DNA from: a virus
Taxonomy: Duplodnaviria > Heunggongvirae > Uroviricota > Caudoviricetes
Virus record (IMG/VR): IMGVR_UViG_2740892113_000002
DNA: 24,336 nucleotides
Direction: 5' to 3' (one strand)
The first letter of the stretch is position 1; each line of letters opens with the position of its first letter. Below are positions 21,748 to 22,389 of the stretch, one piece after another. A model generated the notes under the pieces. That model saw only the letters and a list, made by a program, of their open reading frames with translations. It was not told the origin of the DNA and made no database searches. A program made the translations under genes and the position numbers.

Positions 21748-21965
21748 ATCACCACCAACGGATTGCCCAGACCAGAACAGCAATGGCCACAATACGAATG
21801 GCAAATGCCATTGCCCGAATAAGTTCAGCACTCATCTTTTTAAAGTTCACGATTTCAGCGCAATGACCAGTTTTGCCAGCCCATACAGCATCGGAGACAC
21901 AGCAATACCAACAGCCACCCACTTAATAGCAAAAGCCAGCGCTCTGCTGATGTCATCAGTCACTG

Positions 21966-22097
21966 TCACCCCAGCAGCCCCGACGAAGACAACATCACCC
22001 AGGCGAGGGACAGAAAAAGAGCAACCAGCATTAGTGAAAATGAAATACCGACAATCACACACAGGACCTTTGCCGGCGTTATGAGTTTGTCTGACAT
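21966..22097 (-). CDS. Candidate 43-aa single-pass membrane peptide in the R-Rz gap
   Basis: ATG with AAGGGG RBS. Hand translation MSDKLITPAKVLCVIVGISFSLMLVALFLSLAWVMLSSSGLLG has one hydrophobic helix. Below the ORF-track size cutoff. Speculative. Confidence 0.25.
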   Translation of the reverse strand: MSDKLITPAKVLCVIVGISFSLMLVALFLSLAWVMLSSSGLLG

Positions 22098-22099
22098 AG

Positions 22100-22195
22100 C
22101 TACCCCTTAATTGCCACAATTAACTGGGATACTACCCATAAAAAAGGGATGCTCCAGACCAGCAAAAATTTCCAGTTTGGTAATTGACTAATCAT
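22100..22195 (-). CDS. Candidate 31-aa membrane peptide directly upstream of the 43-aa peptide
   Basis: Internal ATG of the track ORF 22100..22312, preceded by AGGGAG. Product MISQLPNWKFLLVWSIPFLWVVSQLIVAIKG is hydrophobic. Its stop lies 2 nt before the next ATG. Speculative. Confidence 0.2.
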   Translation of the reverse strand: MISQLPNWKFLLVWSIPFLWVVSQLIVAIKG

Positions 22196-22265
22196 GAGTC
22201 GCAACTCCCTAATCAGTTTGCTAAAATCAATCAAGGCAGCCTCCCATAGCTTACTGCCATAAAAA

Positions 22266-22310
22266 CAAAACCCCGCTTGCTGCCAACAAACGGGGTTTTT
22301 ACTTTTATTC
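22266..22310. terminator. Strong bidirectional intrinsic terminator downstream of the endolysin gene
   Basis: AAAACCCCG…CGGGGTTTT stem, extendable to about 13 bp with one G-U pair, flanked by A-run and T-run so that a U-tract follows the hairpin in both orientations. Confidence 0.6.
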
Positions 22311-22389
22311 ACTTAGGTTTTGCCAGTTCACAGGACTTCGTGTTATCCGCCCGCGTTGGCCAACCTCATTTTTCAGCAAAATATTCTGC

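Follow-up and report, generated by a model that had tools for sequence, protein, structure and literature searches.

Portable terminator-led micro-ORF modules as the best explanation for a gap between the endolysin and spanin genes of a phage-21/Qin-type lysis cassette

The stretch of DNA considered here is the Caudoviricetes record IMGVR_UViG_2740892113_000002, and all of its 24,336 nucleotides are called the window below. On its minus strand 642 bp separate the stop of the endolysin gene R (22390) from the ATG of the spanin gene Rz (21747). We argue that this gap is best explained by portable micro-gene modules of the late operon, which form an array and were inserted where the endolysin and spanin genes of a phage-21/Qin-type cassette meet. 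The gap holds four tandem micro open reading frames (micro-ORFs), which we name ORF0, A, B1 and B2, and all four encode single-helix hydrophobic peptides. The gap and its boundaries can be laid out as follows, in the direction of transcription. PGAP is the Prokaryotic Genome Annotation Pipeline, CDS a coding sequence and dN/dS the ratio of non-synonymous to synonymous substitution rates.

22390-22923, minus strand: endolysin R, a 177-aa lysozyme and the upstream boundary of the gap (ORF listing; PGAP 'lysozyme' in an identical genome).
22257-22299, minus strand: predicted intrinsic terminator, with a hairpin at 22299-22267 and a U-rich tail (terminator scan, folding, covariation).
22235-22266, minus strand: leader with a Shine-Dalgarno (SD) sequence, GGGAGG, ending 5 nt before the ORF0 TTG (sequence reading; leaders compared across loci).
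22100-22234, minus strand: ORF0, 44 aa, TTG start, MIDFSKLIRELRLMISQLPNWKFLLVWSIPFLWVVSQLIVAIKG (homologue starts, PHROG, dN/dS).
21966-22097, minus strand: A, 43 aa, MSDKLITPAKVLCVIVGISFSLMLVALFLSLAWVMLSSSGLLG (PGAP CDS WP_001280935.1, PHROG, dN/dS).
21847-21969, minus strand: B1, ~40 aa, core ..TDDISRALAFAIKWVAVGIAVSPMLYGLAKLVIALKS (PHROG, core dN/dS).
21749-21835, minus strand: B2, 28 aa, a B1 paralogue that aligns with B1 (PGAP CDS WP_032140280.1, PHROG, dN/dS).
21253-21747, minus strand: Rz, the i-spanin of 164 aa and the downstream boundary of the gap (ORF listing; PGAP 'lysis protein').

A preliminary description of the window had remarked that R and Rz are separated rather than adjacent, and this is plainly so. 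The homologous R and Rz genes overlap in the K-12 prophages Qin (rrrQ/rzpQ) and DLP12 (rrrD/rzpD) with nothing between them, so the 642-bp segment is an insertion relative to those cassettes. The lysin and Rz genes of Salmonella phage SEN34 overlap too. The segment had also been called AT-richer. It is, but only modestly: GC makes up 0.425-0.50 of it, compared with 0.54-0.585 of R and as much as 0.605 of Rz. Many E. coli ST131-type chromosomes carry all 642 bp at 100% identity. Matches to at least part of the gap occur in 2068 of 5426 complete E. coli genomes, and in 587 of those at least 80% of it is covered.

The micro-ORFs are tightly packed. ORF0 and A are 2 nt apart, A and B1 share a start/stop overlap (GTGA, -4), 11 nt separate B1 from B2, and the stop of B2 lies 1 nt ahead of the Rz ATG (TGGTGGTGATATG). 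The extent of ORF0 comes from its homologues in Citrobacter, Enterobacter, Klebsiella and others. These start with ATG or GTG at M-I/V-DFSKLI, 13 codons upstream of an internal ATG. In the window TTG 22234 occupies that start position, and the internal ATG (22195) is invariant. We therefore read ORF0 as 44 codons, with the 31-aa ORF as its C-terminal part. A has its own SD sequence (AAGGGG) upstream. The B1 family canonically has 48-60 residues (MEKYKRILLRLTMKNGLELKAPVTDDISRALAFAIKWVAVGIAVSPMLYGLAKLVIALKS), and 60-aa and 48-aa forms are seen elsewhere. The copy in the window lacks the family's usual N-terminus and ATG and keeps GTG 21969, which overlaps the TGA of A. PGAP places its start 33 nt farther upstream at CTG 22002, but GTG 21969 is the most likely start. 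Compared with several intact canonical copies, this B1 has 2-5 synonymous codon differences and 0 non-synonymous ones. It has not decayed, and the simplest reading is that ribosomes re-initiate at the GTGA overlap to translate it.

This layout changes what had been said of the ORFs. The preliminary description named two, of 31 and 43 aa and 2 nt apart. Both exist (22195-22100 and 22097-21966), but there are four ORFs in all and the first is better taken as 44 aa. It gave each peptide one predicted helix and a ribosome binding site; in our reading ORF0 (GGGAGG) and A (AAGGGG) each have an SD sequence and one predicted transmembrane helix. Its statement that they fall below calling thresholds does not wholly hold, because PGAP (RefSeq) calls A, B1 and B2 as hypothetical CDSs in identical ST131 genomes and PHROG families cover all four.

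Substitution patterns bear on whether these are genes. Divergent copies were gathered from IMG/VR contigs, annotated genomes and assemblies. Initial scans of viral contigs gave near-identical copies only, and the divergent ones came from re-seeded alignments. Nei-Gojobori dN/dS ratios over all pairs of unique DNA variants were as follows.

Family A: 0.35 in frame; 0.91 and 1.57 in the other frames.
ORF0: 0.23 in frame; 0.97 and 2.47 in the other frames.
B1 core: 0.16 in frame; 0.81 and 6.4 in the other frames.
B2: 0.36 in frame; 0.83 and 1.97 in the other frames.

In the micro-ORF families third codon positions hold more than their share of the variable columns. Exactly 43 codons are kept in 22 of 23 unique DNA variants of A. 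A tblastn search of a phage collection found A intact in 276 records, all full length and down to ~63% identity. These are chiefly Shiga toxin (Stx)1- and Stx2-converting phages, and most are unannotated for A. These frame-specific patterns exclude accidental ORFs, and all four micro-ORFs are real, conserved genes under purifying selection. One member of the A family has been seen in ribosome profiling. It lies in prophage Sp10 of E. coli O157:H7 Sakai and is XECs191, which Hücker et al. (2017, PMC5597208) list among translated novel genes. In LB medium its transcriptome RPKM (reads per kilobase per million mapped reads) was 30.0, its translatome RPKM 12.6, its ribosome coverage value 0.43 and its coverage 0.55 (PMC5597208).

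Three other coding possibilities in the gap were rejected. The 33-aa ORF at 21956-21855 has 0 synonymous and 3 non-synonymous single-nucleotide polymorphisms and an off-frame dN/dS of ~1 or more. The 57-aa GTG ORF at 21922-21749 likewise has an off-frame dN/dS of ~1 or more. One can also imagine an A-B1 fusion through a -1 frameshift at CTTTTTC, but this heptamer is not a canonical slippery one, and the usual family order of B1 before A argues against a fusion.

The terminator hairpin lies 91 nt past the R stop. Its stem is 15 pairs long (13 Watson-Crick and 2 G-U; 6 GC pairs), with a 3-nt loop and the tail GUUUUUAUGG. As sense RNA its minimum free energy is -25 kcal/mol (z = -4.45), and 0 of 200 shuffles were as good. 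The hairpin on the opposite strand reaches -15.9 kcal/mol (z = -2.27), and there the two G-U pairs turn into mismatches. The structure is kept in 13 variants from different prophages, with compensatory double changes in 3 of 8 consensus pairs. The stems themselves vary between loci (CCCCG/CGGGG, GCCCCG/CGGGGC, CCCCGG/CCGGGG). We regard the hairpin as a predicted, structurally conserved and genuine intrinsic terminator. The preliminary description had seen a near-perfect 13-bp stem just after R that would work in both directions. The hairpin is real and folds both ways, but it is clearly stronger in the direction of the genes, and its stem and its distance from R are those given here. Relatives share a leader behind it with the consensus CTGACCTTGA..AAGGCAAGGGAGAA. 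A promoter scan found no sigma-70-like promoter on the coding strand of the gap. A terminator scan found no strong terminator ahead of Rz, that is, downstream of the micro-ORFs. No Rfam family matches the gap at its gathering threshold. The sub-threshold matches rest on the hairpin only, including an ohsC-like match of 19.9 bits against a cut-off of 50.

The distribution of these elements across prophages is what makes them modules. With T for the terminator hairpin, the order between endolysin and Rz is T-ORF0-A-B1-B2 in the window and T-ORF0 in the classic Stx1 phage H-19B, where ORF0 directly precedes Rz. Elsewhere we find T-B1-A, T-B1-B2, T-B1-A-B1-B2, T-ORF0-A and T-B1. Modules recur in many Enterobacterales prophages, and they are present, absent or shuffled among close relatives. 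The plaque-forming phages PhiR5 and PhiR12 carry them too. DNA similarity to H-19B sets in 8 nt ahead of the hairpin and goes no farther than the ORF0 stop (~215 bp), at 81% in phage Rac-SA53 and 77% in an Enterobacter prophage. These limits, together with the unrelated contexts, place the terminator with the micro-ORF module and not with R. The terminator, the conserved leader and ORF0 thus appear to move as one unit of ~215 bp. The notion that the terminator is R's own has to be given up, since it marks the 5' edge of a terminator-leader-ORF module that is portable and also stands behind unrelated genes.

The unrelated contexts are varied. Modules stand between endolysin and spanin genes behind five unrelated endolysin types (R21-like lysozyme, GH19, M15, GH108 and Phage_lysozyme), and the accompanying holins differ too. 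The hairpin, leader and micro-ORF follow a GH19 endolysin in Enterobacter. At the M15 locus the hairpin module comes with ORF0 and A again 2 nt apart. The GH108 locus has the same terminator, with a 65-aa ORF, B1, A and a lipoprotein behind it. In Salmonella a hairpin module also follows a lysozyme of the P22 type. Where the architecture differs, A stops 7-11 nt short of the next start codon, normally that of Rz (ATG), and for ORF0 and B2 the distance is 1 nt. Every context examined closely is a lambdoid-type late operon, and SEN34 has a Q-type antiterminator upstream of its single late operon.

Two of these loci deserve a description of their own. In the E. coli GH108 prophage (L421, 3307-3961; L423, 3779-3961) the 65-aa ORF is hydrophobic, B1 has 38 aa, A has 44 aa and the lipoprotein has 51 or 60 aa with the lipobox LVGC. 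No Rz-like gene was called at L421 or L423, which may have an unusual spanin arrangement. In an IMG/VR prophage (L011, ~1700-2500) a Rha/KilAC-like gene is inserted after R and replaces the terminator and the N-terminus of ORF0. The transmembrane half of ORF0 persists there with a new start (MKMIKMDWKF..; MKMIKMDWKFLLVW...) that overlaps the upstream stop. This retention suggests that the hydrophobic half of ORF0 is the selected part.

All PHROG matches of the peptides are to families of unknown function. ORF0 belongs to phrog_6632, with E = 1.3e-12 for the 70-aa GTG ORF that contains it and 6e-05 for the 31-aa ATG form. A matches phrog_4906 (E = 4.5e-21). B1 and B2 belong to the phrog_3246/1115/4493 group, with E = 3.8e-27, 1.7e-24 and 7.3e-17 respectively for B1, and 3.8e-06 for B2 against phrog_4493. 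A profile search of 1.84 billion representative proteins gave only 39 relatives of ORF0. Some of these join an ORF0-type N-terminus to a B1-type C-terminus (..MFGLAKLL..), and B2 looks like ORF0 in its short form, beginning with M-x-AE-L and ending in IRWW. ORF0, B1 and B2 are therefore probably one superfamily. Homology between the A and B families is unsupported (hhalign probability 2.9%).

The best 19-residue Kyte-Doolittle windows of the four peptides score 1.9-2.9 (2.19 for ORF0). AlphaFold2 models ORF0 with an amphipathic helix at 4-16, a kink at QLPN and a C-terminal helix at 21-43 (mean confidence score, pLDDT, 79). It models A as a single long helix at 3-38 (pLDDT 85.7). The C-terminal helix of ORF0 and the helix of A are predicted to be transmembrane. 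In ORF0 and canonical B1 the N-terminal segment is basic or amphipathic, and hardly any residues follow the hydrophobic helix. The C-terminal flanks of the hydrophobic segments are KG, ALKS, AIRWW and an uncharged 14-residue tail.

It is worth considering how such an array would work. The micro-ORFs lack their own promoter and come after a strong terminator, which suggests that they would be transcribed only by Q-antiterminated RNA polymerase, alongside the holin, endolysin and spanin genes. The terminator would then hold potentially membrane-toxic peptides silent in the lysogen. Translation would probably be coupled along the array and into Rz. Late in infection the peptides would insert into the inner membrane, where they might tune the timing or efficiency of lysis through helix-helix contacts with the pinholin or with the membrane anchor of the i-spanin. 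These last two steps and the silencing are the least certain. The functional reading we favour is that the peptides are accessory modulators of envelope disruption, and we give it a probability of roughly 35-45%. It is favoured because the modules recur between endolysin and spanin behind five endolysin families and because membrane peptides would be made at lysis time.

Several points weigh against a role in lysis. Lambda-type, Qin and DLP12 cassettes do without the peptides, so they are dispensable. In some prophages an antirepressor gene is followed by A, and in O157 and others the slot holds antirepressor or Rha-like genes. The T-ORF0 module stands between baseplate genes in SEN34 and Rac-SA53. 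The endolysin-spanin slot may, given these antirepressor genes and the baseplate location, be simply permissive. None of the four peptides shows a detectable relationship to known lysis regulators: Pfam and NCBIfam give no match, and the resemblance of B1 and A to the second transmembrane domain (TMD2) of the pinholin is not significant. The evidence for expression is thin: the ribosome profiling signal of XECs191 is low and comes from uninduced cells, and the TTG start of ORF0 and the GTG start of B1 are read from sequence. A literature search turned up no work on the function of small ORFs at the R-Rz junction.

The same observations suit another scenario, in which the peptides are moron-like cargo: inner-membrane peptides for superinfection exclusion, for blocking DNA entry or for inhibiting host membrane proteins, carried at a junction that merely tolerates insertions. 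Antirepressor/Rha-type genes occupying the same slot in other prophages, T-ORF0 among baseplate genes, the presence, absence and shuffling of modules among close relatives, a GC content below that of the flanks and the low RNA and ribosome signal for the A homologue in uninduced Sakai all speak for cargo. However, a promoter is missing between the terminator and the first ORF, and the terminator precedes the genes instead of following them, so expression in the lysogen is not expected. PADLOC matched no defence family to any of the four peptides at E <= 1. Recurrence behind five unrelated endolysin families and the tight coupling to Rz also speak against cargo, the main rival, which we hold to be possible but somewhat unlikely.

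The preliminary description had suggested a small toxin-like moron beside a lysis modulator, and a toxin could take the form of a type I toxin-antitoxin-like system. In such a system at least one of the peptides would act as a membrane toxin, its translation held down by an antisense RNA running from inside or just after ORF0 to the two-way hairpin. The size and hydrophobicity of the peptides are those of type I toxins, and the opposite-strand hairpin does fold and is followed by a U-run. Weak antisense promoter-like sites can be found in the window (CTGACA-18-CACAAT, 22091-22120) and in H-19B (CTGACC-18-CATAAT). But these two sites are at non-equivalent positions, the Enterobacter and Rac-SA53 modules have none, and such sites are no commoner than in shuffled sequence. 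No antisense promoter is conserved, the ohsC-like match falls far below its Rfam threshold, and no promoter for a toxin mRNA was found. No Hfq-bound small RNA (sRNA) has been reported at this position in the Sakai prophages checked. The toxin-antitoxin reading is weak, and we consider a type I system very improbable. We give even less credit to the idea that the gap is made of non-functional mosaic joints, that is, recombination linkers or decaying fragments with accidental open frames. In its favour, AT-richer DNA readily gives rise to hydrophobic ORFs, the region is covered by many overlapping mechanical ORFs, and B1 in the window lacks its usual N-terminus and ATG. The preliminary description had itself allowed for a decayed remnant with no conserved reading frame. 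A remnant of that kind is hard to reconcile with dN/dS values of 0.16-0.36 in frame and ~1 or more off frame, with frames intact up to ~40% amino-acid divergence in several genera, with start codons and SD sequences conserved across loci, or with the synonymous-only differences between B1 and several intact copies. The substitution analysis largely refutes this idea.

The pinholin comparison needs a few words more. The idea that B1 or A is a truncated TMD2 arose because of the chimeric protein P0165 and a shared G-x3-S motif. P0165 (ENA contig, 554 nt) is a 59-aa chimera in which a holin N-terminus (...SPSQW) is fused to a B1 C-terminus (VAVGVAVSPMLYGLAKLVIALKS). Either a deletion truly brought holin and B1 genes together, or the join is an artefact of assembly. 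As evidence of homology the idea was rejected, since hhalign against an alignment of S21-type holins gives 1.4% for B1 (in the same register) and 0.2% for A (in one column).

The rest of the locus has further features that bear on the cassette as a whole.

23616-23831 (approximate), minus strand: class II (phage-21-type) holin gene of the lysis cassette.
23267-23611, minus strand: YdfR-family gene between the holin gene and R.
22300-22389, minus strand: non-coding 3' flank of R, up to the hairpin; near-identical haplotypes are most polymorphic here.
21342-21527, minus strand: Rz1 lipoprotein gene embedded in Rz (Rz1 lipoprotein annotated in relative L008).

The N-terminus of R is hydrophobic (MNAKIRYGLSAAVLALIAAGAPAP). 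Among 26 near-identical haplotypes 38 gap positions vary, with 23 of them in q16-74 (59 nt between the R stop and the hairpin) and 15 in the remaining 568 nt. The patch, local and either hypervariable or recombinant, is at window positions 22300-22374. Another long hairpin resembling a terminator lies at 23871-23899 on the minus strand, ~40 nt upstream of the holin start (12 pairs, tail UUUUAUUGUU). With the gap hairpin it brackets the holin-YdfR-R block by terminators on both sides. A 90-aa ORF (23029-23301, plus strand) is antisense within the cassette between the YdfR-family gene and R. It overlaps the 3' end of the YdfR-family gene and is the PGAP hypothetical protein WP_000369850.1 in identical genomes. 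On the other side a 71-aa ORF (21041-21256, minus strand) and the Rz stop overlap by 4 nt; annotation lists the ORF as hypothetical, and a 74-aa form is conserved in a relative. Beyond it the window has a YlcI/YnfO-family gene at 20582-20842 on the plus strand, which leaves an interval of ~20843-21040. At the equivalent position in Sakai Sp10, between Rz and the YnfO-like ECs_1967, lies the Hfq-bound sRNA EcOnc11 (Tree et al. 2014). The Sakai interval ECs1966...ECs1967 is among the most Hfq-crosslinked intergenic regions. Within the gap itself there is no known prophage sRNA: the anti-sRNAs and Pas sRNAs are located upstream of the holin gene and EcOnc11 downstream of Rz.

The sequences of the micro-ORFs are already in databases as hypothetical proteins. 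Today's annotations miss ORF0 or treat it inconsistently, give B1 arbitrary starts and often leave A out of phage records. We found no paper describing these genes or the terminator-led cassette. A bolder proposal is that the terminator-leader-micro-ORF unit is an undescribed mobile 'antitermination-gated' cassette, whose built-in upstream terminator would see to it that a membrane-active peptide is made only through Q-modified polymerase. The ORF0/B superfamily and A would then be a new class of lysis-clock or spanin-partner microproteins that set lysis timing and hence toxin release by Stx phages. We think this unlikely as a whole. If the peptides do alter the timing or efficiency of lysis, burst size and Shiga-toxin release would be affected, and the textbook holin-endolysin-spanin scheme would gain an added component. 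Even if they have no role in lysis they would still be a clean example of microprotein genes spreading as self-contained cassettes, with a terminator serving as the 5' edge of a mobile unit.

It remains to compare the array with known systems. Phage P2 offers a parallel in position. Its LysA is reportedly a non-essential membrane protein, co-transcribed late, that may tune lysis timing. The lysA gene sits between the endolysin gene and lysB/lysC, the equivalents of Rz/Rz1. Like LysA and antiholin-type accessory lysis proteins, the micro-ORFs would be late accessory membrane-protein genes between endolysin and spanin genes. There is no sequence similarity: LysA is much larger and has several transmembrane segments, whereas the peptides here are single-helix, 28-60 aa long, without a Pfam or NCBIfam match, and come in multiple shuffled copies behind a terminator.

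The releasin of phage Mu, gp25 (DUF2730), is a membrane-tethered accessory lysis factor that is not a holin. It is encoded a few genes downstream of an endolysin of the signal-anchor-release (SAR) type, and it has 99 aa, an N-out/C-in topology, a 73-aa acidic cytoplasmic domain and almost no periplasmic part (PMC9239132). ORF0 and canonical B1 are also predicted to consist of a cytoplasmic segment and one transmembrane helix. However, they are half its size or less, their transmembrane helix is C-terminal and their N-terminal segment is basic. The micro-peptides also accompany endolysins without a called N-terminal anchor (GH19, M15, GH108), and a Pfam search found no DUF2730 match among the four.

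The holin of this very cassette, the class II S21 pinholin (PF04971), is likewise a small inner-membrane protein of the lysis cassette. The G-x3-S motif is common to B1 (KWVAVGIAVSPMLYGL), A (CVIVGISFSLMLV) and TMD2 of the holin. Small-xxx-small motifs are common in membrane helices. The two conserved in-frame starts of ORF0, 13 codons apart, recall the dual-start motifs of holins. The micro-peptides differ in having one transmembrane helix rather than two and in having no charged C-terminal tail.

Lambdoid phages also carry morons, such as lambda bor/lom and HK97 gp15. The likeness lies in extra DNA between genes that are adjacent in relatives, a distinct base composition, a factor-independent terminator and mobility. 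But the gap has no promoter of its own, and its terminator is upstream rather than downstream of the genes. Expression therefore appears tied to antiterminated late transcription and not to the lysogen. The type I toxins Hok, Ldr, TisB and Ibs are hydrophobic single-helix peptides found in prophages, as are these peptides of 28-60 aa, but no antitoxin RNA, own promoter or Rfam match was found here. The nearest conceptual analogues are P2 LysA, Mu gp25, antiholins and morons, while the peptides themselves belong only to PHROGs of unknown function. The micro-ORFs join the accessory small membrane-protein genes of phage late operons.

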